64,000 nt of DNA, taken from NCBI GenBank assembly GCA_043814315.1, contig JBDRKE010000024.1, forward strand, positions 4,680 through 68,679, given 5' to 3'. Position 1 is the first letter of the stretch. Each line of letters opens with the position of its first letter. The notes beneath the pieces are model-generated. The model was given only the letters and a program-made list of their open reading frames with translations, did no database searches and had not been told where the DNA came from. The translations under genes were made by a program, and so were the position numbers. The DNA comes from Candidatus Omnitrophota bacterium. GTDB taxonomy: Bacteria > Omnitrophota > Gorgyraeia > Gygaellales > Profunditerraquicolaceae. Below are positions 7,529-64,000 of this stretch, piece by piece.

Positions 7529-7706
7529 GTCAAATCCAAATCACAAAGCACAAAACACAAAACAAGCCCAAAGCACAAAATCCAAAATAAAGAATCCTTT
7601 GTTTTGAATTTTGAGTTTTGGCACTTCGACTGCGCTTGAGAGCCAATGGTGAGCGGAGTCGAACCATTGGATTTATTTTGAATTTTGAATTTTGACATTT
7701 GAATTT
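7529..7706. repeat. LC-family long hairpin (copy R2) with a nested NW module
   Basis: The A/C-rich arm is caaatccaaatcacaaagcacaaaacacaaaac... The G/T-rich arm is tttgttttgaattttgagttttg ... atttattttgaattttgaattttgacatttgaattt. The right end is near-identical to the right ends of R4 and R5. Confidence 0.7.
7620..7670. repeat. NW module (ggcacttcgactgcgcttga..ccaatggt-loop-accattgg), nested in R2
   Basis: An 8-bp stem ccaatggt/accattgg. The same module recurs at 59798-59872 with a 24-nt insertion. Confidence 0.7.
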
Positions 7707-9007
7707 ATCTTAGTAGTATTCTTCTTTAGGCTAGAGACCGCTTTCTTAAAGACATTCCCTCTTTCTTCATAGCCGGAAAACATATCAAAGCTTGAACACA
7801 TGGGGGATAATAACACAGAGTCTCCTGGCACGGCCTTTCGATAAGCCTTAAGAACGGCTTCTTCTAAACTGCCGGCTTCTTCAATGGACAGGGTGTCTTT
7901 AAGCACCTGAGCAATTTTCTCCTTTGCCTCGCCGATCAGAATAACTTCTTTTACTTTTTGGCGCGCCTGTCCCAGAATGATCCCGTAATCCACCCCCTTA
8001 TCCTTGCCTCCGGCAATCAAAATGACAGGCGCCTGAATGTTATTTAAGGCCCAGAGGGCCGAATCGGCTGTCGTCGCCTTGGAATCGTTAATGAATCTTA
8101 TATGATTTATTTCCGCCACCTGTTCTAGGCGGTGCTCAATGCCTTTGAAATCTCTAAGGACTCTTAAAACCGATTCCTGATCGATGCCTAGGATCGAACC
8201 CACCGCTACTACGGCAGCCTGATTCGGATTCAATTCTTTTGTTTGTGAAAAAAAGATAGGCCGGGCTTTTGTTTCCTTCGCTAAATCTCTTAATACGGGG
8301 TCATCCTGATTCAGAACCACATAATCGAACTTATCCTGATTCTCAAAGATCCTTTTCTTTGCCTCAAGATACTCCTGCATATTCTTATACCGGTCCAAGT
8401 GGTTACGGGTGAAATTTAAGATCACGGAAATCTTCGGCTTAAACGTGACGATATTCTCCAACTGAAAAGAGCTTACCTCAAGCGTCACAAAATCCTTCTC
8501 TCTTATCCTGCGCACTTCCTGAGAAAAAGGGTTGCCGATATTGCCGCAAATGAACACCTGCTTACCGCTGGATGAAAGGATCCTGCCGATTAACGTGGTG
8601 ACAGTGGTCTTGCCGTTTGAACCTGTAATGGCTATGATTTCGCCGGGACATAAACTCCAGGCAAACTCAATCTCGCTGATGATGAGAGTATTTTCTTGTT
8701 TTGCCCACAGGATGGGCGAGGCATCAGAAGGAACACCCGGAGAAATAATCAATAAATCCTTATCTATTACAAACTCCTGCGAGTGTCTGCCCAACTCCGC
8801 TTTTATGGCTTTTGATTTTAACTTCAATCTATGGGCGCGCGTGCTGTCATCATCCTTATAGTCCGTGACGCTTACATCCGCTCCTAAATCCCAAAGCAGA
8901 TTGACGCAGGCCACCCCTGAGCGGCCCAGGCCTACCACTACCACTTTTTTATTTTTATAATAATCCGTGTTACGCATAGTAAAAATCTGATAAATCTCAA
9001 ATGCCAA
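7673..9007 (-). CDS. murD: UDP-N-acetylmuramoylalanine--D-glutamate ligase
   Basis: VVVVGLGRSG and GSNGKTT motifs. The start is 9007 or ATG 8977. The last ~11 codons (INSNVKIQNSK) are encoded by the R2 repeat arm. Confidence 0.9.
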   Translation of the reverse strand: MAFEIYQIFTMRNTDYYKNKKVVVVGLGRSGVACVNLLWDLGADVSVTDYKDDDSTRAHRLKLKSKAIKAELGRHSQEFVIDKDLLIISPGVPSDASPILWAKQENTLIISEIEFAWSLCPGEIIAITGSNGKTTVTTLIGRILSSSGKQVFICGNIGNPFSQEVRRIREKDFVTLEVSSFQLENIVTFKPKISVILNFTRNHLDRYKNMQEYLEAKKRIFENQDKFDYVVLNQDDPVLRDLAKETKARPIFFSQTKELNPNQAAVVAVGSILGIDQESVLRVLRDFKGIEHRLEQVAEINHIRFINDSKATTADSALWALNNIQAPVILIAGGKDKGVDYGIILGQARQKVKEVILIGEAKEKIAQVLKDTLSIEEAGSLEEAVLKAYRKAVPGDSVLLSPMCSSFDMFSGYEERGNVFKKAVSSLKKNTTKINSNVKIQNSK

Positions 9008-9052: not shown

Positions 9053-9166
9053 AAATTCCAGATAAATTACAAATCACAAATTCCAAATTACAAACTCATG
9101 AGTTTCGGACATTGTGATTTTGGATTTGGGATTTGTTTGGGATTTGGAATTTGGAAATTGGGATTT
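9053..9166. repeat. LC-family hairpin (copy R3)
   Basis: The aaattcc..caaatcacaaattccaaattacaa arm faces ttgtgattttggatttgggatttgtttgggatttggaatttgg. The centre is a perfect palindrome, aaactcatgagttt (9092-9105). Confidence 0.65.
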
Positions 9167-9189
9167 AACTTATTATTTGTCATTTCGGC

Positions 9190-16698: not shown

Positions 16699-16929
16699 CG
16701 AGCACTTGACTTATGGTGCACTAAGTCCGCCATAAGTCAATTCTCCTTTTGTGTATTCCGCTTCTTGTACGAACTTACCCCCCCTCCACCACTTTCAATA
16801 TAGCACAGGTTATAGCGAAAGTGGTGGGGGGTGAATTCGCCCAAACAACTTACGTTCGCTTGCCGCACAAGCGGCACACCGACTGATCCGATAAAGCCGG
16901 GTGCTCGCTCCGTAAGTTGTGGTCTCATC
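16699..16929. repeat. composite palindromic element, copy A (H1 16699-16745; H2 16778-16831; H3 16833-16929 with nested 48-nt insert 16860-16907)
   Basis: It shares modules with 27386-27600, 29944-30090, 32088-32246 and 62140-62195. It occupies the mraZ 5' leader between the operator and the ATG. Confidence 0.8.
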
Positions 16930-16955
16930 CACTTTATTCCACTTATTCCCACTTT
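16929..16955 (-). promoter_or_regulatory. MraZ operator: three direct AAGTGG(G/A) boxes at 10-nt spacing
   Basis: The minus strand reads AAAGTGGGAATAAGTGGAATAAAGTGGAT immediately downstream of the -10. This matches the known MraZ repeat architecture (GTGGN plus a 5-nt spacer). Confidence 0.7.
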
Positions 16956-18011: not shown

Positions 18012-18086
18012 TCAAGATCGGGTCTTGTAATAGATTGAGAAATAATGAGTTGCAAGACCCGATCTTGAGGCGGTTTTGAGGCGGTT
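18012..18086. repeat. K hairpin copy 1 plus tandem tgaggcggtt x2
   Basis: Arms are tcaagatcgggtcttg (18012-18027) and caagacccgatcttga (18053-18068). The tandem 10-mer is at 18066-18086. Confidence 0.8.
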
Positions 18087-26078: not shown

Positions 26079-26163
26079 GTAAAAACTGCTCCTCGTTGCA
26101 TATCCTCTTTTGCTATGGCAACTCGGAATCAAATTCGCCTATCATTCAAGACACAGACGAATT

Positions 26164-26241
26164 TGGTCGGGGCGGACAGACTTGAACTGTCGACCTCAGC
26201 GTCCCGAACGCTGCGCTCTAGCCAAACTGAGCCACGCCCCG
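26164..26241 (-). tRNA. tRNA-Pro (anticodon CGG), CCA encoded
   Basis: I folded the cloverleaf manually. Acceptor is CGGGGCG/CGCCCCG, D arm GCTC/GAGC, and anticodon stem CAGCG/CGCTG with loop TTCGGGA. T arm is GACAG-TTCAAGT-CTGTC, ending in ACCA. Confidence 0.95.
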
Positions 26242-27385: not shown

Positions 27386-27600
27386 AAGTGAGTGCACAAT
27401 TTATAGAACGCAATCTTTCGCTTCGTTCAGGATTATCCTAAGAAACGAAATGCCGAAGGATGAAGTGAACATATATTGTATGCTCGAACTTACCCCCCAC
27501 CACTTTCATTATAGAGTAAGCTAAATAAGAAAGTGGTGGGGGGTCAAATTCAGACATACAACTTACGTCATTTCATTCCGTAAGTTGTGTCTTCATTTAA
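27386..27600. repeat. composite palindromic element, copy C (H1-like 27386-27485; H2 27493-27543; H3 27545-27600)
   Basis: It fills the whole ribD-stop to ribE-start interval. The H2 arms are ccccccaccactttc/gaaagtggtgggggg, and the H3 stem is acaacttacg/cgtaagttgt. Confidence 0.8.
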
Positions 27601-29526: not shown

Positions 29527-29943
29527 TTATTTATCCTTCTCCAGCTTTATCTTGTCCAGTATAGCATTAACGAATTTTCCGGCTTCGGGGTCCGAATATT
29601 TCTTGGCTAGCTCTACAGCCTCATTAATAGAAACTTTGGGAGGGATATCCTCGCGAAACAGAAGCTCAAAACAACTCATTCTTAATATATTCCTATCGAC
29701 TACGGCCATACGATCCAATTGCCAATTCGTAGCGTATTGAGAGATTTTTTCGTCAATGATTTCCAGATTTTGTATCACGCCGAGGACCAGCTCTGTCGTA
29801 AAAGTTTTTAAATCTTGGACGATTGCCTCATCCGCATGCGACTCCCAAAAGCTATCCAAAGCCATATCGCCGGTATCGTGGGCGACATCCACCTGATACA
29901 GGATCTGTAACGCAAATTCTCTGGCCCGTGTGCGTTTACGCAT
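29527..29943 (-). CDS. nusB: transcription antitermination factor NusB
   Basis: 138 aa, R(A)REFALQILYQ..., and the classic ribH-nusB linkage. Confidence 0.9.
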   Translation of the reverse strand: MRKRTRAREFALQILYQVDVAHDTGDMALDSFWESHADEAIVQDLKTFTTELVLGVIQNLEIIDEKISQYATNWQLDRMAVVDRNILRMSCFELLFREDIPPKVSINEAVELAKKYSDPEAGKFVNAILDKIKLEKDK

Positions 29944-30090
29944 TTAATGAGCGCTTGACTTACGAACATGCGAGTAAGTCAATGCGCGAATTAAGTTCGG
30001 ACATAAATTTATGTTCACTTGCCGCAGAAGCGGCACACCGGCTGTTCCGATACAGCCGGGTGCTCGTTCCGTAAGTTTAGTCCTCACTTA
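29944..30090. repeat. composite palindromic element, copy D (H1 29944-29994; H3 29992-30090 with nested insert 30019-30066)
   Basis: It spans exactly from the ribH TAA (30088-30090) to the nusB ATG (29941-29943). H1 is bounded by ttaatgagcgc...gcgcgaattaa. Confidence 0.85.
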
Positions 30091-32195: not shown

Positions 32196-32246
32196 CCCCC
32201 CACCACTTTCGCTTTTAACCTGTGCTATATCGAAAGTGGTGGGGGG
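32196..32246. repeat. H2 module copy E, inside the riboswitch (P4-hairpin position)
   Basis: ccccccaccactttcg / cgaaagtggtgggggg. The loop is the reverse complement of the loop in copy A. Confidence 0.8.
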
Positions 32247-32303
32247 TCGCGGGCTAAACCGCCGGTCAGGAATTTCACCTTGCCCCGAAGATTATTGAAC
32301 ACA

Positions 32304-32359: not shown

Positions 32360-32830
32360 ATGATACAACGCATTGTCAGCCAGATACATAAACTTCTGAT
32401 AAAAAATAAAAAAACTATGGCTGTGGCAGAATCCTGCACCGGTGGCTTGCTCTCTAGTTTTCTGACCCATTCCTCTGGCAGTTCACGATACTTTCAGTTG
32501 GGGGTAGTTGCTTACAGCAATAATATGAAGAGCACTCTTCTACAAGTACCTCCTAAGATGATTGAACAAAAAGGCGCCGTCTCCGAGCTTATCGCCAGAA
32601 GGATGGCTAAATCTGTGAGAGAATTAGCTGGGACAGACTTCGCAATAGCTATCACCGGCATTGCCGGTCCCACCGGCGGCACTCCGCAAAAACCCATAGG
32701 CACCGTCTTTATCGCCGTGAGCGCTAAGAATAAAACCATTTGCGAAGAATTCCATTTTACCGGTAACCGAACTACCATAAGAAATAAATCGGCCCTAAAA
32801 GCTTTGGAATTACTAAAGAGTTTCTTCTAA
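32360..32830 (+). CDS. CinA C-terminal-domain protein / nicotinamide-nucleotide amidohydrolase PncC-like
   Basis: TMAVAESCTGGLL..GVVAYSN motif. I prefer the start at 32360 because the longer ORF-track start (32312) overlaps the rib promoter. Confidence 0.75.
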   Translation: MIQRIVSQIHKLLIKNKKTMAVAESCTGGLLSSFLTHSSGSSRYFQLGVVAYSNNMKSTLLQVPPKMIEQKGAVSELIARRMAKSVRELAGTDFAIAITGIAGPTGGTPQKPIGTVFIAVSAKNKTICEEFHFTGNRTTIRNKSALKALELLKSFF

Positions 32831-32834
32831 AATT

Positions 32835-32922
32835 CAAGATCGGGTCTTGGAATATCTTGATAGACAACAAGTTACAAGACAAGTTACAAGACCCGATCTT
32901 GCGAGAGGGATCTTGCGAGAGG
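32835..32922. repeat. K hairpin copy 2 with tandem duplications at both borders of the right arm
   Basis: Arms are caagatcgggtcttg (32835-32849) and caagacccgatcttg (32887-32901). aagttacaagac x2 lies at 32869-32892, and gatcttgcgagagg x2 at 32895-32922. Confidence 0.8.
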
Positions 32923-35771: not shown

Positions 35772-36751
35772 CGGTTGATATTGAGGCCTTCTTTCGTGAT
35801 CAAGATATTCTTTAACACCTGGCCCCTTCTGCCTAAATTTGAAAACAGCTGGCCGTTGACCTCAAGTTCCACAGCGGAAGCATTACCTATGGAAAGTTCG
35901 ATTTTTTCTTTAGCCTGCCAGCTTTCGAATCGCCCCTTCTCCAGGGTCCTTTGAAACACGACCTTCCCGTCCACTTTAACGTAAACCCAGCAATTCTCTC
36001 TGGTCCGAAGCCCCAGCCTGATACCGGAATTCGTTTCTTTCTTAGCCGTCGACGGAGGCTGGGGGGCCGCAGGTGCAAATGAACCTCTTGCCGCGGCAAC
36101 TACGCCGGGTTCTTTAACGGCCCTGGGCGTGCGGCGTGCTGAGGTTTGAACAGGGGCGGATTTCTTTCGCGCTAAATACGCTTTGCGCTTAGAAGATATA
36201 AACTTTCCAAAATTAAAAAAAACAAAAGCCACAAACAGCAGTCCGATAACAAGTATCGCGCCCCTTTTGATTGCCTGAGCATGAACCTTGAGCCCTCTTA
36301 TTTTCTCAACGGCAATTTTTAAGTAAGAAGCTGTCTTTTGGAATAGAATTTCGAGTCTCTCCTTAAGTTTCTGCTGAGGTTTTTCCTGAGGTTTCAGCTG
36401 AGGCTTCTCTTGGGGTTTCTGCTGAGATTTTTCCTGGAGTTTCTGTCGAGGTTTTTCCTGAGGTTTCTCCTGGAGGGAAGACTTTTTTTTCTCTTTGACT
36501 GCGACAATGGGCGGTTTCGCTTGAGGCCTTGCTTCTTTATGCTCCGAAATGTAATCCTTCGGGTCAACCCCTAAGAAATTGCAATATATCTTCAAGAAAC
36601 CTTTTAAATAGACCGGACTAAGATTAGTCAGCCCATCCCCTTCGATAGCCTTCAATATATTTATATGAATCTTGGTTTTCTTATGCACCTCTTCCAGATG
36701 AATGCCCTTTTCCAGGCGGATTTTTTTAAGCCCTTCTTGCGGCTGAGTCAT
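35768..36751 (-). CDS. RodZ-like protein (HTH + TM + DUF4115-like C-terminal domain)
   Basis: N-terminal HTH (LEEVHKKTKIHINILKAIE), a low-complexity linker, a TM, and a C-terminal beta domain (CWVYVKVDGKVVF...). Confidence 0.55.
   Translation of the reverse strand: MTQPQEGLKKIRLEKGIHLEEVHKKTKIHINILKAIEGDGLTNLSPVYLKGFLKIYCNFLGVDPKDYISEHKEARPQAKPPIVAVKEKKKSSLQEKPQEKPRQKLQEKSQQKPQEKPQLKPQEKPQQKLKERLEILFQKTASYLKIAVEKIRGLKVHAQAIKRGAILVIGLLFVAFVFFNFGKFISSKRKAYLARKKSAPVQTSARRTPRAVKEPGVVAAARGSFAPAAPQPPSTAKKETNSGIRLGLRTRENCWVYVKVDGKVVFQRTLEKGRFESWQAKEKIELSIGNASAVELEVNGQLFSNLGRRGQVLKNILITKEGLNINR
36368..36475. repeat. nine tandem 12-nt units inside the rodZ-like gene
   Basis: Units tttctgctgagg/tttttcctgagg... 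encode (P/L/S)Q(E/Q)K tetrapeptides on the minus strand. Confidence 0.85.
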
Positions 36752-45495: not shown

Positions 45496-45544
45496 GGTTT
45501 ATTATATTTAGCGAGCCCCCTGTCCTATAAATTTTCAAACTTTC

Positions 45545-45617
45545 TCAAGATCGGGTCTTGTAACTCATTATTTACCAAACTATTTCAAGACCCGATCTTA
45601 AATTTCTTAAATTTCTG
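45545..45617. repeat. K hairpin copy 3 plus tandem aaatttct(t/g) x2
   Basis: Arms are tcaagatcgggtcttg (45545-45560) and caagacccgatctta (45586-45600). The loop is about 80% identical to the reverse complement of the K1 loop. Confidence 0.8.
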
Positions 45618-53335: not shown

Positions 53336-53492
53336 AAATGACAAAGCACAAGGTTATCAATAAATTCAAATACCAAAGCACAAAGCACAAATATCAAAAC
53401 AGAGAATTTCTTGTTTTGAATTTTGGGTTTTGCCTGCCTGCCGGCAAGGCAGGGATTTATTTTGAATTTTGAATTTTGTCATTTGTGCTTTA
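53336..53492. repeat. LC-family hairpin (copy R4) with a nested cctgcc palindrome
   Basis: The left arm aaattcaaataccaaagcacaaa is identical to the R5 left arm. The right end atttattttgaattttgaattttgtcatttg is shared with R2. Confidence 0.7.
53432..53454. repeat. GC palindrome, cctgcc family
   Basis: gcctgcctgccggcaaggcaggg lies at the apex region of R4. Confidence 0.7.
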
Positions 53493-53494
53493 AG

Positions 53495-54688
53495 TTAAAG
53501 GCCTAAACGCTGCGCCGCAACATAAGTGTCTTTATCGCCTCTTCCCGAAAGGCAGACAATAATGATAGATTTCTTATTTATTTTGCCTTTTAACTTTTTC
53601 AAATAAAAAATAGCATGCGCCGGCTCAAGGGCAGGGATAATCCCTTCTGTTTCCGAGAGCAGCTTAAAACCTTCCAACGCTTCTTCGTCCTTTACGGCGA
53701 CGTACCGGGCTCTGCCTATTTTCTTATAGTAGGCGTGTTCCGGACCAACGCCTGGATAATCCAGGCCCGGGGCTATAGAGTGCGCATTTTTGATTTGGCC
53801 GAATCTATCCTCTAAAAGGTCGGACTTTGAACCGTGCAAAACCCCCGGCTTTCCCGCAACTAAACTTGCCGAATGCCTACCGGAATGAAGCCCTGCTCCT
53901 GCAGCCTCAACCCCGATCATCCTCACCTTTCTATCATTAAAGAACGGATGGAACAACCCCATGGCATTACTGCCTCCTCCCACGCAAGCCACCAGATAAT
54001 CAGGAAGCCGGTTTTCTTTCTTTAAAATTGCGCCTCTGGCTTCCTTGCCAATCACCGACTGAAAATCGCGCACCATCTCCGGGTAAGGATGGGGCCCTGC
54101 CACAGAACCTATAATATAATGCGTGTGACGCACATGCGTAACCCAATCCCTTAAGGCTTCAGTCATGGCATCCTTGAGTGTCTTTGTTCCGTTTTTAACC
54201 GGGATGACGCGGCTGCCTAATAACTTCATGCGATAAACGTTAAGGCTTTGCCTTTTTATATCTTCCTCACCCATATAAATATCGCACGTTAAACCAAACA
54301 TCGCGGCCACCGCTGCCGTAGCGACGCCGTGCTGGCCCGCTCCGGTCTCTGCGATGATGCGAGACTTTTTCATCCGAAGCGCCAGCAAAACCTGACCCAG
54401 GGTATTGTTGATTTTATGCGCGCCTGTATGCAGCAGGTCTTCCCTTTTCAGATAGACCCTCACCCCGCCTAAGAAACAACTCAAATTCTTCGCAAAATAC
54501 AAAGACGTGGGCCGGCCCGCATACTCTTTAAGATAATAATCCAGCTGACGGTTAAATTTTCTATCCCGCCTGGCTTTTCTGTATTCCTGCTCCAGTTCGT
54601 CAAGGGCATAAATGAGAGTCTCCGGTACAAATCGCCCCCCGAACTCCCCAAAATGCCCAGTCTTATCCGGTAACCTCTTTTTCATCAT
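53495..54688 (-). CDS. trpB: tryptophan synthase beta chain
   Basis: [13 protein letters not shown] and HTGAHKINN motifs. I place the start at ATG 54688 with the SD gaggag; the ORF-track GTG at 54772 is an extension. Confidence 0.95.
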
Positions 54689-58282: not shown

Positions 58283-58408
58283 AAAATTCAAATACCAAAG
58301 CACAAAATCCAAAATAAACTCAAAGCACAAAATCTAAAACTAAAAAGGTTTGTTTAGAATTTTTGATTTTGGATTTGTTTTGTGCTTTGGATTTTGTCAT
58401 TTGAATTT
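58283..58408. repeat. LC-family hairpin (copy R5) in the murA-trpG spacer
   Basis: The arm aaattcaaataccaaagcacaaaatccaaaataaa... faces ...ggatttgttttgtgctttggattttgtcatttgaattt. There is an internal ~26-nt direct duplication. Confidence 0.7.
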
Positions 58409-58411
58409 ACA

Positions 58412-59674
58412 TTATTCTTTTTCCCTCCAGATCTTGGCCCCTAATCTTCGTAATTTTTCATCGATGTTTTCATATCCGCGCTCCAGATGGTAAATCCTAG
58501 ATACGGTAGTTTTCCCGAGAGCTGCCAGACCTGCCAATATAAGACATGCGGAAGCGCGTAAATCCGAGGCCATCACCGGTGCGCCGGACAACCTCTTGAC
58601 GCCCCCGACAATGGCATGCGGCCCTTCTCTTTGAATATGGGCACCCATACGATTAAGCTCGGCAACATGCATGAACCTATCCGGATAAACCTTCTCCGTA
58701 ATGACACTGATGCCTTGCGTTACGCTCATCAAAGCCATAACCTGTGCTTGCATATCCGTAGGAAAACCGGGATAGGGCAATGTCGTGACGTTCACGGGCT
58801 TTAGTTTCTTTTTGGCACGTACGCGCACAGAACTATCCGTTCTATTGATGCCAGCACCTGCTTCTTCCAACTTGTCTATAAGGGCTCCCAGATGATGGAA
58901 AAGGACATTTTTGATGAAAATGTCTCCCCGCGTAATCAAAGCTGCAATCATCAAGGTACCTGCCTCTATTCTATCGGGGATGATGGCGTGTGCGGCTCCA
59001 TGCAAGTGCCTGACACCTTCTATTTCTATGATAGGTGTGCCATGGCCTTTTATTTTAGCTCCCATCTTAATCAAAAATTCCGCTAAATCTACAACCTCCG
59101 GCTCGCAGGCCGCGGATTCAATGAGCGTCTTACCCTGCGCCAAGACCGCTGCCATCATCACATTATCTGTTGCTAAAACCGATGACCCATAAATCCCGCC
59201 CAGATAGATGTGATTGCCTTTGAGTCTATCTGCCTTTGCCACGACATAACCTGAATCGACATCAACCTCAGCACCTAGAGCTTTTAATCCTTTGATATGC
59301 AAATCCACAGGCCTAATCCCTATGACGCATCCGCCCGGAAGAGAAACTTTGGCTTTCTTAAATTTTGCAAGAAGCGGGCCTAAGACACAGAAGGAAGCAC
59401 GCATGGTAGAAACGAGCTTATAATCGGCGATGCAATTTGCGCTTCTGCCCGACATTACGCTAATGATGCCTTTGTCAAATTCAACGGCCTTTCCCAAAGA
59501 GCGCAAGATCTTAACCATGGTGCCGGTATCCCGCAGATGAGGCACGCCCTTAATGACACAGGCATCATCGGTCAATAAAGTTGCCGCTAAAATGGGAAGC
59601 ACGGCATTCTTGGCACCTGATACCGTCACCTCTCCCGATAATCTCACGCCCCCTTCTATCATCAGTTTATCCAT
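58412..59674 (-). CDS. murA: UDP-N-acetylglucosamine 1-carboxyvinyltransferase
   Basis: 420 aa starting MDKLMIEGG..L.GEV.VSGAKNA, with an active-site region around PGGC. Confidence 0.95.
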   Translation of the reverse strand: MDKLMIEGGVRLSGEVTVSGAKNAVLPILAATLLTDDACVIKGVPHLRDTGTMVKILRSLGKAVEFDKGIISVMSGRSANCIADYKLVSTMRASFCVLGPLLAKFKKAKVSLPGGCVIGIRPVDLHIKGLKALGAEVDVDSGYVVAKADRLKGNHIYLGGIYGSSVLATDNVMMAAVLAQGKTLIESAACEPEVVDLAEFLIKMGAKIKGHGTPIIEIEGVRHLHGAAHAIIPDRIEAGTLMIAALITRGDIFIKNVLFHHLGALIDKLEEAGAGINRTDSSVRVRAKKKLKPVNVTTLPYPGFPTDMQAQVMALMSVTQGISVITEKVYPDRFMHVAELNRMGAHIQREGPHAIVGGVKRLSGAPVMASDLRASACLILAGLAALGKTTVSRIYHLERGYENIDEKLRRLGAKIWREKE

Positions 59675-59702: not shown

Positions 59703-59917
59703 GAAATTCCAAATCACAAATCCCAAATCGCAAACAAATCCCAATACCGAAATCCCAATGTCCGAAATAAAAGATTTATTTCGGAATTTTGCAAATTGGC
59801 ACTTCGACTACGCTTGAACGCCAATGGTGAGCGGAGTCCTGAGCCTGTCGAAGGGCGAAGCCGAACCATTGGAATTTATAATTTGTTTGTAATTTGTGTA
59901 TTGGGATTTGGGATTTT
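59703..59917. repeat. LC-family hairpin (copy R6) with a nested NW module and a small inner hairpin
   Basis: The arm gaaattccaaatcacaaatcccaaatcgcaaacaaatccc... faces aatttataatttgtttgtaatttgtgtattgggatttgggattttt. The inner hairpin is tccgaaataaa/tttatttcgga (59761-59785). Confidence 0.7.
59798..59872. repeat. NW module copy 2 (with a 24-nt insertion at 59839-59862)
   Basis: ggcacttcgactacgcttgaacgccaatggtgagcggagtc[ctgagcctgtcgaagggcgaagcc]gaaccattgg, compared with 7620-7670. Confidence 0.75.
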
Positions 59918-60694
59918 TCTTGCTACTATGACTCTATCTATATGATTATAATCCTTAACGACTTCTATAATTTCTAGGCATCCTGAGTTCTCGAATAGTT
60001 TTCTTATGGGCCCTAATTGGTTATAACCCATCTCCAAAACCAAGAAGCCTTCTCTTTCTAAATAACCCGCAGCCACGCTTATAATCCGGCGGTAGAAATC
60101 CATCCCCTCTCTGCCTCCGTCCAAGGCTATCTGAGGCTCATAGCTAATCTCCGGCTGCAAAGTAGCAATTTCATCCGTGGGGATGTAGGGAGGATTGGAA
60201 ATGATAAGTTCATAGTTCATAGTTTGCAGTTCAGAGTTATTGAATAAATCGCTGCATAAAAAATTGATTTTTGCATTATTTATTACCGCATTCTGCTTTG
60301 CTATTCTTATCGCGCTCTCTGAAATATCTGTAGCTGTTATATTTGTATTTGGTAAAAATTTTGCTACACTCACTGCGATGCATCCTGAACCTGTCCCCAG
60401 ATCTAGAATACTCCGAGCTCCGATCCCCGAACTCCGAACTAAATTTATTACCGTCTCCACCAAAATCTCCGTTTCGGGCCTGGGGATGAAGACGTCTTGG
60501 TTCACTTTAAATTTCAAACCCATGAATTCCGTCTTGCCTAAAATATACTGCAGCGGCTCTCCCCGGATTCTTCTTTTTAATACGGATGCCGCCAAAGACG
60601 CTTTATCTTTATCTAAACAGAAGCGTTTGTTTTGATACAGGTCAACTCTCTCATAATCCAATATCTCTGTAAAGAGAAGTTCAGCTTCGTTCAT
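59876..60694 (-). CDS. prmC: peptide chain release factor N5-glutamine methyltransferase
   Basis: 272 aa with DLGTGSG and NPPY motifs. The C-terminal tail KIPNPNTQITNKL is encoded by the R6 arm. Confidence 0.9.
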   Translation of the reverse strand: MNEAELLFTEILDYERVDLYQNKRFCLDKDKASLAASVLKRRIRGEPLQYILGKTEFMGLKFKVNQDVFIPRPETEILVETVINLVRSSGIGARSILDLGTGSGCIAVSVAKFLPNTNITATDISESAIRIAKQNAVINNAKINFLCSDLFNNSELQTMNYELIISNPPYIPTDEIATLQPEISYEPQIALDGGREGMDFYRRIISVAAGYLEREGFLVLEMGYNQLGPIRKLFENSGCLEIIEVVKDYNHIDRVIVARKIPNPNTQITNKL

Positions 60695-61764
60695 GTCTTT
60701 TGTTCGCCTTGTCGCGCTCTTTCTTCTTGAGCCTTGATAAGGGCATCCGATAGTCCATCCAGCTCTCCCTCAAGAACAGCCTCTAATTTGTGCAGGGTAA
60801 AATTGATGCGGTGGTCGGTGACTCTACGATCGGGGAAATTATACGTGCGGATTTTTTCGCTGCGGTCACCTGTACCAATCTGAGATTTCCGTGCCTGAGA
60901 AAGCTTCTTAGATTCCTGTTCCCTTTTCATGTCCAGCAACTTTGCGCCCAGGATCCTCATGGCCTTAAGTTTATTTTTAAGCTGAGAACGCTCATCCTGA
61001 CAGGCGATCACAACGCCCGTGGGGATATGCGTAATTCTGACGGCAGAGTCGGTTTTTTGCATGTGCTGGCCGCCGGGGCCGCTGGACCTATATGTGTCTA
61101 TCCTCAAATCTTTCGCATCGATAACCAGATCGGACTGTTGTGGTTCTACAAGCACAGCAACCGTTGCCGTAGAGGTGTGGATCCTGCCTTGAGCCTCCGT
61201 AACGGGAACGCGCTGCACGCGATGGACTCCGCTTTCAAATTTAAGTCTTCTGTACGCGTCTTTTCCTTTAACGCTAAAAATAACCTCTTTCAACCCCCCT
61301 GCCTCATTGGAGTTGGAAGACATGGACTCTACGGCCCAGCCTTTATTAGTGGCGTATTTGACATACATCCGGTAAAGGTCTGCGGCAAACAATCCCGCCT
61401 CATCTCCGCCTGTGCCTTGCCTTACCTCTACAATAACATCTCTTCCGGCATCAAGATCCTCCCCGGCTAAGGCAACCCTCAACTGCTCTTCTAAATTTGA
61501 CTTCCTGGCTTCTAAATCCTGGAGTTCTTTTTTGGCTAAATCACCAAATTCTTTATCATGCTTTTCTTTAAGCACAACCGTCCAGTCCTCCATCTCTTTA
61601 GCGGTCCTTTTATATTCCCTGAATAGGGATACGGAGTCTTTCAGATCCGACAGCTCTTTGGCCAACTTATTATATTTTGCTTTTTCAGAAATGACTTCAG
61701 GAGAAGCCAAAAGCTGCTCTAACTCCCCATAGCGCTGTTCTGACTTCTGTAACTGCTCAAACAT
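60691..61764 (-). CDS. prfA: peptide chain release factor 1
   Basis: 357 aa with GGQ (SGPGGQHMQKT) and a PxT-region pattern. Confidence 0.95.
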   Translation of the reverse strand: MFEQLQKSEQRYGELEQLLASPEVISEKAKYNKLAKELSDLKDSVSLFREYKRTAKEMEDWTVVLKEKHDKEFGDLAKKELQDLEARKSNLEEQLRVALAGEDLDAGRDVIVEVRQGTGGDEAGLFAADLYRMYVKYATNKGWAVESMSSNSNEAGGLKEVIFSVKGKDAYRRLKFESGVHRVQRVPVTEAQGRIHTSTATVAVLVEPQQSDLVIDAKDLRIDTYRSSGPGGQHMQKTDSAVRITHIPTGVVIACQDERSQLKNKLKAMRILGAKLLDMKREQESKKLSQARKSQIGTGDRSEKIRTYNFPDRRVTDHRINFTLHKLEAVLEGELDGLSDALIKAQEERARQGEQKT

Positions 61765-61767
61765 AAC

Positions 61768-61998
61768 TTAAAGAACGTCTCTTAAATTTTCACTAACCTT
61801 CTTTTTCCCGTATTTTTTCATAAATTTATCCACCCGGCCCGCAGAATCCACGAATTTCTGTTTCCCCGTAAAGAACGGATGGCATTTAGAGCATATCTCG
61901 ACGCGAATACTCGGTTTAGTGGAACGGGTATGAATGGTCTCTCCGCAAGCGCAGACAATCGTGCAAACTTTATAGTCCGGATGAATCTTGTCTTTCAT
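61768..61998 (-). CDS. rpmE: 50S ribosomal protein L31 (Cys-containing type)
   Basis: MKDKIHPDY...[10 protein letters not shown], preceded by the SD aaggagag. Confidence 0.95.
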
Positions 61999-62011
61999 TT
62001 TCTTCTCTCCT

Positions 62012-62082
62012 TAATTTGCCCGCTATAGCGGGTCAGCAAATTAATCCCGAGCTTCTTTCTATTCGTGGTTTGAAGCGAGGGA
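62012..62082 (-). promoter_or_regulatory. L-motif copy 1 (two-hairpin leader motif) directly upstream of the rpmE SD
   Basis: Hairpin A spans 62045-62082 (tcccgag-cttc...gaag-cgaggga) and hairpin B 62019-62032 (cccgctatagcggg). caaatt and the SD follow on the sense strand. Confidence 0.55.
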
Positions 62083-62139
62083 TATCCCTCGTCCCAAGCA
62101 CTCATTGTATTTTTACTTGTTTGCGCAAGGGACTCGGGA

Positions 62140-62195
62140 TAAGTTCGGACATAAATTTACGTTCACTTTCGTTCCGTAAATTTAGTCCTCACTTA
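62140..62195. repeat. H3 module, minimal copy F, starting at the rho stop codon
   Basis: taagttcggacataaatttacg-ttcactttcgttc-cgtaaatttagtcctcactta. It has the same ends as H3 in copy D but lacks the 48-nt nested insert. Confidence 0.8.
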
Positions 62196-63449
62196 CTGGT
62201 TCATACTGTTCAAAAACTCTTCATTATTCTTTGTTTTAGAAAGCTTCTCAATCAAAAGCTCCATCGCCTCCACATTGTTAAGCTCATTCAAGACCTTCCT
62301 TAAGATCCAGATCTTCTGTAATTGTTCCTGTTTAACCAGTAATTCCTCGTGTCTCGTATTGGAACGTTTGATATCCATAGCAGGGTAGATCCTGCGTTGG
62401 AATAAATTTCTGTCCAGTTGCAATTCCATGTTTCCTGTGCCTTTGAATTCTTCGAAAATCACGTCATCCATGCGGCTTCCCGTTTCTACGAGAGCCGTAG
62501 CGATGATCGTCAGGCTCCCTCCTTCTTCAATGGCGCGCGCTGCACCAAAAAATCTTTTCGGTTTTTGAAGGGCATTGGAATCAATTCCACCTGAGAGAAC
62601 CTTGCCGCTGTGCGGTATAACGGAGTTATACGCCCGCGCCAGGCGCGTGATGCTATCCAAAAGCACCACCACATCCCTCTTATGCTCAACGAGCCTCTTT
62701 GCCTTTTCCAGAACTATCTCGGCAACCTGTACATGACGCTCAGGCGGTTCGTCAAACGTAGAAGATATAACCTCCCCCTTAACGTTTCTCTGCATATCGG
62801 TAACTTCCTCCGGACGTTCGTCTATCAGAAGCACGATTAATATCACATCCGGCGTATTGGCAGTTATGGCATTGGCGATTTTCTGCAAAAGCACGGTCTT
62901 GCCGCTGTAAGGCTGGGCGACGATCAAGCCTCTTTGCCCCTTTCCTATGGGCGTGAGTAAGCTCATCACCCGCATTGACACCTCTTCCGGCTTTGTCTCT
63001 AGATTAAAAGGCAGGCGCGGATAAACCGGAGTCAAATTATCGAACAAAACCTTTTCTTTGGCCTCCTCGGGATTCTCAAAATTCACCGCTTCGACTTTAA
63101 GCAAGGCAAAATATTTCTCCCCTTCTTTAGGCGGCCTGATCTGGCCGCTGACCGTATCCCCTGTCCTTAAATCAAATTTCCTTATCTGCGAGGGGGAGAT
63201 ATAGATGTCGTCCGGACAGGGCAGGTAATTATAATTCGGGCTCCTCAAGAATCCGAATCCTTCGGGCAAAATCTCTAAAATCCCTTCGCCGAACATCAGC
63301 CCCTCTTTTTCCGCCTGGGCCTGAAGAACTTTAAAAATGAGATCCTGTTTCTTGAGCCCGCTTGTGCCGTTTACATGAAGCTCCCTCGCCAATTTATTAA
63401 GCTCGGTGATTTTCATGTCTTTTAAGTTTCCGATGTCTAATTTTTCCAC
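62193..63449 (-). CDS. rho: transcription termination factor Rho
   Basis: 418 aa with an N-terminal RNA-binding domain and a RecA-type ATPase with Walker A (GKTVLLQ). The start is GTG, 5 nt after the SD gaggagg. Confidence 0.95.
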
Positions 63450-63461
63450 CTTACCCTCCTC

Positions 63462-63531
63462 AATTTTCCCGCATTCTACGGGTTAAAAATTGATCCCGAG
63501 TATCCAGCTATTGCTTCTGTGATACGAGGGA
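63462..63531 (-). promoter_or_regulatory. L-motif copy 2, directly upstream of the rho SD
   Basis: Hairpin A spans 63494-63531 (tcccgag-tatc...gata-cgaggga) and hairpin B 63468-63482 (cccgcattctacggg). Confidence 0.55.
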
Positions 63532-63605
63532 CTAATTTTCCTGCTTTTTACTGGTCAGCAAATTATCCTAAAGCATCCATCATTCCCTTACATGATGCGT
63601 AGGAT

Positions 63606-63673
63606 ATAATTTTCCCGCATTCTACGGGCCTGCAGATCCCGAGCACCGTCTATTGCTTATCAGGTGCGAGGGA
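63606..63673 (-). promoter_or_regulatory. L-motif copy 3, distal part of the rho leader, overlapping the coaE stop
   Basis: Hairpin A spans 63637-63673 (tcccgag-cacc...ggtg-cgaggga) and hairpin B 63614-63628. The coaE stop codon lies in the hairpin A loop. Confidence 0.55.
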
Positions 63674-64000
63674 CAAGTTCAGCCTTTTCCAAATATCCTT
63701 TACCTGTCTTTTTGTTTTTTTCAGACTACCGTTGTTATCTATGATAAAATCCGCCAACCGTATCTTTTGGGATTGGGAGATCTGACTCTTTACCCTGCCT
63801 AACACGCTCTTAAAACTCAGGCAATCTCTTTTCTTTATTCTTTCTAACTGTTTGGCCTTGGCGATCTTTACAACCGCCAGCTCCTCAACGATAGTTTTTA
63901 ATCCCGCCTCCAGCAAGAGCGGGGCGTCCAAAATAACAACCTTTGACCGAGAAAGCTCTATCTTTTTTTTAATGATTCTGATGATCGGGGGGTGTAAAAT
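63650..64000 (-). CDS. coaE: dephospho-CoA kinase, C-terminal part (open at window end)
   Basis: ...VVILDAPLLLEAGL... is the CoaE pattern. The frame stays open to the window edge. Confidence 0.8.
   Translation of the reverse strand: MLHPPIIRIIKKKIELSRSKVVILDAPLLLEAGLKTIVEELAVVKIAKAKQLERIKKRDCLSFKSVLGRVKSQISQSQKIRLADFIIDNNGSLKKTKRQVKDIWKRLNLSLAPDKQ

Follow-up and report, generated by a model that had tools for sequence, protein, structure and literature searches.

The DNA analysed here (the window) is a stretch of 64,000 nucleotides (nt) from a Candidatus Omnitrophota bacterium (assembly GCA_043814315.1, contig JBDRKE010000024.1, positions 4,680 to 68,679), in which the genes coaE, rho, rpmE and prfA lie on the minus strand. 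Two copies of a motif made of two hairpins, A and B, are found in the leader of rho, and a third copy precedes rpmE, the gene for ribosomal protein L31. It was originally predicted from the sequence that this motif is a duplicated regulatory RNA of the rho leader. On the basis of a comparison with related genomes and metagenome contigs, we found that it is no rho or L31 regulator, but a dispersed, modular and structure-constrained cassette that is polar towards the unit it flanks. Since such cassettes are found between all kinds of genes, tRNAs and rRNAs, our preferred reading (probability about 0.6) is that the rho-leader motif is the local member of a dispersed family of modular intergenic cassettes, serving as a generic boundary element of transcript units and not as a regulator of rho.

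The order given by the original prediction, namely hairpin A, hairpin B, (A/C)AAATT and the Shine-Dalgarno (SD) sequence, was confirmed, and hairpin B (cccgtagaatgcggg) indeed lies 6 nt from the GAGGAGG of rho. The three inner stems of hairpin A also pair on the plus strand as proposed: tatc (63501-63504) with gata (63521-63524), cacc (63644-63647) with ggtg (63663-63666), and cttc with gaag in the rpmE copy (62045-62082). The base of hairpin A, UCCCUCG...CUCGGGA, is invariant in sequence, as had been stated, but does not form a continuous helix: four base pairs (bp; UCCC/GGGA) are followed by a symmetric 2x2 UC/UC mismatch, a G-C pair and then the variable stem. The invariant frame is A-UCCC-[UC]-G ... 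C-[UC]-GGGA-U, and it encloses a freely covarying inner stem of 4-5 bp, with nnAUAG in the loop of sense copies. On the opposite strand, and hence in inverted copies, the mismatch reads GA/GA. The segment previously taken for a linker between the two hairpins turned out to be the 5' side of the lower stem of hairpin B, in which, within the window, AAUUU(U/G) pairs with (A/C)AAAUU; the rho and rpmE copies differ here by a compensatory change from U-A to G-C. Both hairpins are reproduced by RNAfold. The whole cassette thus has a length of ∼75-80 nt, with hairpin A stacked linker-free on an AU-rich hairpin B of variable sequence, which begins at the first base past GGGA and whose 3' arm stops exactly at the SD, at the AUG or at position +1 of a tRNA. 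An arm complementary at 7-8 of 8 positions to the first 8 nt after GGGA was present in 49% of the family copies described below, compared with 3% in shuffles (34 distinct arms). Sequestration of the SD by the 5' arm CCCUC was also considered and was dropped, since complementarity to the SD is inconsistent among copies.

The features of the window are listed in Table 1. In the proximal rho copy, hairpin B adjoins hairpin A without a linker and its final two bases open the SD; in the rpmE copy, the SD is AAGGAG and the ATG lies at 61996-61998. The distal copy overlaps the coaE stop codon, as had been noted: the stop is the TAG (63650-63652) within the loop motif AATAG of hairpin A. The lower stem of hairpin B and the SD are both missing from this copy. 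The spacer between the two rho-leader copies contains an additional local hairpin (AUCCUA..UAGGAU, 63562-63607) and a remnant resembling hairpin B (aatttgctgacc..ggaaaatt, 63534-63564). The original count of three copies is right for the sense orientation, and missed an inverted fourth copy (62085-62139), which stands head-to-head with the rpmE copy and abuts it, as well as a degenerate copy next to tRNA-Pro. The rho cistron is therefore bracketed by the sense proximal copy upstream and the inverted hairpin A downstream. The pattern TCCCTCG-N(8-38)-CTCGGGA occurs three times in the window, always on the minus (sense) strand (0.01 in shuffles), the inverted copy being the fourth. A strict scan for N4-TC-G...C-TC-N4' hairpins returned only these four copies (it missed the copies of a further element, module C, whose stems are irregular), and a sensitive covariance-model scan of the full 64 kb returned the same four and one marginal extra. 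The latter, the degenerate inverted hairpin A at 26087-26131 (UUCCGAG..CGAGGAG; 12.5 bits, E=0.11), has the same tRNA-[B'][inverted A] arrangement as is seen elsewhere, B' being the mirror-image form of hairpin B. An intrinsic terminator was rejected as an explanation of the hairpins, because the U run starts 5-6 nt past the stem and no terminator-like sites were found in 61900-63800.

Table 1. Positions of the hairpins and adjoining signals in the 64-kb window
Feature	Position	Strand	Remarks
Hairpin A, distal rho copy (A1)	63634..63676; core 63637-63673	-	inner stem cacc/ggtg; covariance model 45.8 bits
Hairpin B, distal copy (B1, truncated)	63608..63636	-	upper stem cccg..cggg (63614-63628) + AAAATT only
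Spacer separating the two rho-leader copies (75 nt)	63532..63607	-	read directly
Hairpin A, proximal rho copy (A2)	63491..63534; core 63494-63531	-	inner stem tatc/gata; 49.7 bits
Hairpin B, proximal copy (B2)	63460..63493	-	UCAAUUUU..cccg..cggg..AAAAUUGA
rho SD GAGGAGG and GTG start	63447..63461; SD 63455-63461, GTG 63447-63449	-	
Module C long hairpin, reversed, directly past the rho stop	62141..62192	-	AAAUUUACG..CGUAAAUUU; repeat family D8/D16
Hairpin A, fourth copy, opposite orientation	62082..62142; core 62085-62139	+	inner stem tccc/ggga, long loop; 30.7 bits
Hairpin A, rpmE copy (A3)	62042..62085; core 62045-62082	-	inner stem cttc/gaag; 51.7 bits
Hairpin B, rpmE copy (B3), and SD	62005..62044	-	UUAAUUUGC..cccgc..gcggg..GCAAAUUAA (62011-62044); SD AAGGAGAG (62005-62012)
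Degenerate inverted unit past tRNA-Pro (26164-26241, minus strand)	26087..26163	+	AU-rich hairpin B' (26132-26163), then inverted hairpin A

At least 120 public metagenome contigs were found to contain the pattern TCCCTCG-N(11-13)-AATAG-N(5-8)-CTCGGGAT. Among the matches listed there were 104 distinct cores, 94 of which passed a 4-of-5 pairing filter; about 7-10 are probable chance hits (GC-rich and without complementarity), leaving ∼95 distinct copies. In the alignment made from among these matches (alignment A1, 96 distinct copies), 91.7% of the stem cells were paired, compared with 81.6% in shuffles, and 122 cells were altered on both sides (38 ± 7 in shuffles, the observed value being reached by 0 of 500). 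All four Watson-Crick pair types occurred in comparable numbers at two stem positions. The earlier argument that the compensatory stem changes reveal a selected structure is well supported by this covariation, which lies far beyond chance and which persists and becomes stronger when about 100 to 140 copies are considered. The covariance model derived from the scan copies identified 143 copies in 619 kb of non-redundant contigs that had themselves been ascertained by the scan. The outer frame TCCCTCG..CTCGGGA was again essentially invariant in the 47 model copies on which the scan pattern had not imposed it, and their loop motif was relaxed to nnATAG or gone. With regard to known families, Rfam 15 returned only a tRNA at the gathering threshold and nothing meaningful at E<=10 in 61700-64000, L31 leader families included; no viral contig of IMG/VR matched the cassette, and the literature searched contained no description of Omnitrophota repeats or RNA motifs. 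The family has apparently not been described so far and is probably very abundant in Omnitrophota. In the multi-copy contig L163, the nearest named relatives of the S3 protein are Omnitrophota proteins (61-64% identity).

Analysis of the genomic context revealed a strong polarity. In co-directional spacers, 66 copies were sense and 16 antisense, and 18 out of 20 adjacent pairs were head-to-head. Hairpin A follows 0-17 nt past the upstream stop codon, unless this stop is the TAG of the loop, as in seven independent cases including the distal copy of the window; the start codon lies 31-46 nt past hairpin A. The cassette precedes at least 20 unrelated genes and 7 tRNAs and also occurs within rRNA operons. 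Six cassettes are present in a single operon of L163, ahead of L2, S3, S17, L24, S14 and IF-1; other downstream genes, as assigned by Pfam, include S13, GroES, PhoU, Prs, MraZ, YebC, AccC, a peroxiredoxin and a type II secretion system ATPase. The cassette is co-linear with operons, occupies the gap between a stop codon and the next start and is oriented towards the unit that it precedes. Intergenic scatter in both orientations, which had been named as the sign of a selfish repeat, was largely what we observed; however, the scatter is non-random, with a strict polarity to the neighbouring gene.

A similar polarity was found around stable RNAs. On the 5' side of tRNAs there were 7 sense and no inverted copies, on the 3' side 6 inverted and 2 sense copies, and mirror-image copies ([B'][inverted A]) lie past tRNAs and 23S rRNA. 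Two rRNA operons whose 16S sequences are only 80% identical (L150 and L085) both have the arrangement tRNA-Ile-[B'][inverted A]-[A][B]-tRNA-Ala-[B'][inverted A]. In L085 the 23S gene is also bracketed, by [A][B] 138 nt upstream and [B'][inverted A] right downstream. According to RNAfold, sense and inverted flanking copies pair into a long stem, inside which lie hairpin B, the tRNA and hairpin B', and in the minimum free energy folds of [A][B]-tRNA-Ala-[B'][inverted A] the flanks were paired in both L150 and L085 (z = -3.9 and -5.5). Since the polarity is mirrored around single tRNAs within 200 nt, replication-strand bias cannot be its source. Two further observations concern these operons. A cassette ([A][B]) at 560-700 of L150 lies just upstream of two putative sigma-70-type promoters (TTGACA-N17-TATATT, read by eye) before 16S; it would be part of the 3' end of the gene upstream and not of the rRNA transcript. 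The 16S gene of L085 contains, near its 3' end, a ∼900-nt insertion (about 1739-2610) that encodes a LAGLIDADG endonuclease (PF00961, E=2e-13), and from about 2614 the 16S sequence continues with its last ∼75 nt.

The occurrence of the cassette at the rho locus varied among even the closest relatives. The Rho of the window has a 100% identical counterpart in a metagenome-assembled genome of Candidatus Omnitrophota. In L081 and L082 (Rho 97% identical) and L084 (95%), coaE overlaps the rho start, and spacer and motif are both absent. Exactly one cassette was found at the coaE-rho junction of L083 (Rho 99% identical): its hairpin A has the stem cacc/ggtg and overlaps the coaE stop, and its complete hairpin B runs into the SD. 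The spacer between the two copies of the window is not present there. Because L083 has one cassette and the window two, the second window copy is a later addition. Genomes with 95-100% identical Rho thus contain 0, 1 or 2 copies at this junction, and the cassette was also absent from 11 further Omnitrophota rho loci (a Rho-seeded search of genome contigs returned mostly non-Omnitrophota loci). In the rho-rpmE spacer, each of these close relatives has a different palindromic repeat; in L082 (10470-10600), an AT-rich quasi-palindrome fills it in place of the hairpin A cassette. It should also be noted that the coaE-rho spacer of a more distant relative (L001 3490-3600, Rho 93% identical) has a duplicated module of its own, a GC hairpin followed by ATTTTnC..CTCAAGGAGGA, whose sequence is unrelated to hairpin A.

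Gain or loss of the whole cassette, SD included, between closely related genomes is also evident in ribosomal-protein operons. The closest relatives of the L163 operon (L205 and L206, S3 78% identical) have spacers of 1-17 nt and no copy, and there was no copy in L209 either. A single copy is found in L207 and L208 (73% identical), at the L23|L2 junction; it is nested, with an inverted hairpin A in place of the variable stem-loop of the sense copy. A different repeat family occupies two other ribosomal-protein junctions of these contigs; in L207, the L3|L4 (5167-5274) and L14|L24 (9933-10043) junctions contain a palindromic repeat GAGTGATTAGGG...CCCTAATCAC. Junctions of this kind have evidently been colonised by more than one repeat family. 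Comparison of filled and empty sites showed that the complete cassette (hairpin A, hairpin B and SD) sits between the stop codon and the ATG, and two sites have kept the old TAAAATG or TAATG junction at the left flank. Flanking direct repeats of 3-4 nt were present at four of six filled sites, a number not above chance expectation in AT-rich flanks, and the terminal repeats of single cassettes are limited to their own hairpins. On the other hand, retention was also observed: at the pstB|phoU junction, the cassette has been kept in five lineages (PhoU 67-81% identical), in which the stem of hairpin A is of one type and hairpin B has undergone two compensatory changes. No identical inner stem-loops were found at unlinked loci, only local tandem duplicates being identical; all six copies of L163 differ from each other, and so do all copies of the window. 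Among the open reading frames (ORFs) adjoining clustered copies in L202, L177 and L087, no transposase was seen when the translations were judged by eye; these were housekeeping genes or an integrase-like ORF.

Several of these results weigh against an RNA-level boundary element and have to be considered together. The runs of sense copies only, such as the six in L163, rule out mirrored pairing as the way in which the cassette generally acts. Covariation is never seen in the outer frame, contrary to what pure selection on RNA structure predicts. Strand tests were neutral: G.U and A.C mismatches of the inner stem numbered 15 and 13, and sense and antisense strands of the hairpin B region had equal folding energies and G.U counts; therefore a hairpin acting in DNA is also compatible with them. 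Patchiness among close relatives, nesting (L207, L177 and 62085-62139 of the window) and tandem duplicates resemble mobile DNA, and estimates of family diversity and density are biased because the scan pattern was taken from the window copies. In addition, it is by inference that we have transcription proceed through the cassettes and assign them a role as RNA. The patchiness, the nesting, the tandem duplicates, the frame without covariation and the neutral strand tests are in favor of a selfish mobile repeat (similar to a MITE, a miniature transposable element with inverted repeats, or to REP/REPIN elements), whose hairpin would be needed as single-stranded DNA by a transposase and which would have no host function; its TAATAG-loop stops and SD would be carried only to keep insertions between genes harmless. 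Polymorphism at 95-99% identical Rho and among related ribosomal-protein operons, whole-cassette insertion with the old junction left on one flank, head-to-head pairs and the other palindromic families in neighbouring spacers all fit such an origin. The tandem G.A mismatch of the Y-GA-R type is stable in DNA, and the opposite-strand form of the UC/UC mismatch is of this type. However, copies within a genome all differ and unlinked loci do not share identical inner parts, unlike recently spreading REPINs or MITEs; the short flanking repeats do not amount to a consistent target-site duplication, and no transposase adjoined the clustered copies among the ORFs examined. A purely selfish repeat also accounts poorly for a frame kept to the nucleotide at the same rRNA-operon positions across 80% 16S identity, for the pstB|phoU retention with compensatory change in situ, for the exact abutment of hairpin B to tRNA +1, AUG or SD and for the mirrored polarity around single tRNAs. 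We therefore consider it a serious but unlikely explanation. The same abutment, the SD inside the unit, the mirrored polarity within 200 nt, the compensatory changes at orthologous sites and the fact that rRNA operons of class-level divergence keep both position and frame argue for a role as RNA, whereas patchiness, nesting, the frame without covariation and the neutral strand tests argue for a mobile origin at the DNA level. The two are compatible, as a mobile origin may have been followed by an acquired or tolerated RNA role, as in REP elements.

Two other explanations are much less probable. In favor of the original idea of Rho autoregulation or L31 feedback through a duplicated structured leader are the structure, which is under selection, and the location of copies immediately before the SDs of rho and rpmE; in addition, Rho autoregulates via its leader in Escherichia coli and Bacillus subtilis. 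This idea is now very improbable: the motif is absent from the rho leaders of the nearest relatives (97% and 95% identical Rho) and of the 11 other Omnitrophota, the same cassette stands upstream of dozens of unrelated genes, of tRNAs and of rRNA, the distal copy overlaps the coaE stop and has no SD, Rfam gave no match even among L31 leader families, and the element has a structure, in contrast to rut-like sites, which are C-rich and unstructured. A protein-binding site or promoter element in double-stranded DNA, with half-sites ATCCCnnG about 30 bp apart, might explain why the outer 7-8 nt are invariant on both sides and why the L150 copy lies just upstream of the rrn promoters read by eye. 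Nevertheless, covariation of the inner stem and of hairpin B would be meaningless for binding to duplex DNA, and the variable length of hairpin B precludes a fixed distance to a transcription start. No positional -10/-35 signal was observed upstream of hairpin A, no promoter-like sites were found in the window spacers, and copies lie within tightly packed ribosomal-protein operons. This explanation is hardly tenable.

According to the boundary-element reading, the cassette would be transcribed together with its neighbours, and the two stacked hairpins would, as RNA, provide a cap for the upstream cistron and would insulate the start site downstream of them and present it. A mirrored downstream copy might pair with the sense copy to form a long processing-type stem around the enclosed RNA, and the two-fold symmetric, invariant UC/UC frame is a likely recognition site of a conserved factor. 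That the symmetric UC/UC loop is common to hairpin A and module C suggests one recognition factor for both. The coaE-rho spacer of the window was probably created by one cassette insertion and then a second; with such an origin, any effect on rho should be generic and not a Rho or L31 feedback. A bolder version, which we regard as doubtful, is a phylum-wide RNA punctuation code, in which the frame AUCCC-UC-G...C-UC-GGGAU and its GA/GA mirror mark the 5' and 3' boundaries of cistrons, tRNAs and 23S rRNA. The symmetric internal loop would be read by a dedicated nuclease or RNA-binding protein, conserved and probably dimeric, which would cut or protect polycistronic precursors, and hairpin B would be a portable ribosome-entry module. 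Such a code would parallel archaeal bulge-helix-bulge processing or mitochondrial tRNA punctuation.

Other repeats are also present in the window. Module C long hairpins (16834-16930, 27573-27599, 29940-30090 and 62141-62192) are of two types, TAAT-TC-GCGC..ACTTACG..CGTAAGT..GCGC-TC-ATTA and AAGT-TC-GGAC..GTCC-TC-ACTT; they have a 2x2 TC/TC internal loop as in hairpin A and often directly follow hairpin A in metagenome contigs. A second intergenic family is the AT-rich quasi-palindrome AAATCCAAAAT.../...TTTGGATTT, found at 7532-7721, 9060-9181, 53337-53599, 58284-58423 and 59704-59931. G/C-capped hairpins (CCCCCCACCACTTTC...GAAAGTGGTGGGGGG) occur at 16782-16832, 27492-27543 and 32196-32247, one of them adjoining a module C copy, and a further family, TCAAGATCGGGTCTTG...CAAGAC, is present in both orientations (18012-18076, 32830-32907 and 45537-45605). 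A 12-nt tandem repeat of about 11 units, (T/C)TC(T/C)CTGAGGTT-like, at 36346-36477 may be coding.

With the false lead of a rho/L31 riboregulator removed, a testable family of structured repeats in an uncultivated phylum has been gained. Its grammar is unusually strict: the cassette points at the following gene, brings its own SD, abuts tRNA +1, brackets tRNAs and 23S rRNA and keeps its frame across 80% 16S identity. As mobile DNA, it would demonstrate how insertions that bring a ribosome-binding site (RBS) with them can separate the genes of tightly coupled ribosomal-protein operons; as the target of a host factor, it would represent a general signal for RNA boundaries or processing, a type that is not known from bacteria. 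Both cases are relevant to gene calling, to the annotation of operons and untranslated regions and to RNA-motif screens in metagenome-assembled genomes of Omnitrophota, in which the cassette will recur as the 'leader motif' of whichever gene is inspected.

Among known systems, the REP/BIME elements of Enterobacteria and Pseudomonas (REPINs with RAYT transposases) are likewise short (∼38 nt), numerous, extragenic and imperfectly palindromic, lie within operons near stop codons, are often paired in alternating orientation, and are co-transcribed; they have been proposed to act in the stability, processing and translation of mRNA. The many extragenic palindromes and alternating clusters that define them have a counterpart in the 143 model copies and 18 head-to-head pairs described above. 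In contrast, the cassette has no tetranucleotide of the GTAG type, its upstream profile being only G-G-(T/A)-(T/A)-A, part of which comes from the stop codon upstream. Genomic copies of REPs are near-identical, whereas the inner stems of the cassette all differ within a genome; REPs are species-specific, whereas the cassette frame is conserved across class-level divergence, and the cassette has in addition an RBS hairpin and a strict polarity towards the flanked unit. The presence/absence polymorphism at orthologous sites that is typical of MITEs was seen at coaE|rho and at six ribosomal-protein junctions. Similar to pneumococcal BOX, ERIC and Neisseria Correia elements, the cassette is modular (combinations of A, B and C), hairpin-forming, intergenic and polymorphic, and those elements are also co-transcribed with genes and able to supply expression signals; the cassette is, however, much smaller, lies in rRNA operons where it abuts tRNA ends, has the UC/UC loop common to modules A and C, and could not be shown to have terminal inverted repeats or a target-site duplication.

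Processing signals provide a second comparison. Complementary elements with predicted long enclosing stems also surround 23S rRNA and tRNAs in rRNA processing stems, and the intercistronic RNase III sites of phage T7 are likewise hairpins with internal loops between the cistrons of a polycistronic mRNA. The predicted folds of L150 and L085 contain such complementary flanks and a long duplex around a stable RNA, and the 23S gene of L085 is bracketed in the same way. On the other hand, one cassette frame is reused genome-wide and across distant lineages, and in mRNAs the copies are mostly single and, at ∼12 bp, too short for classical RNase III substrates. A processing role is a prediction only. 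Rho autoregulatory and ribosomal-protein leaders share with the cassette the position immediately upstream of the rho and rpmE RBS; unlike them, the cassette lacks both gene specificity and conservation at orthologous leaders, and Rfam gave no match for it. In the synthetic RiboJ insulator, a structured element is followed by a hairpin that exposes the RBS, and the resemblance of the cassette to it is an analogy only. Taken together, the best reading is that the cassette family is akin to the REP- and BOX-like modular intergenic repeats, with an unusual grammar of its own.

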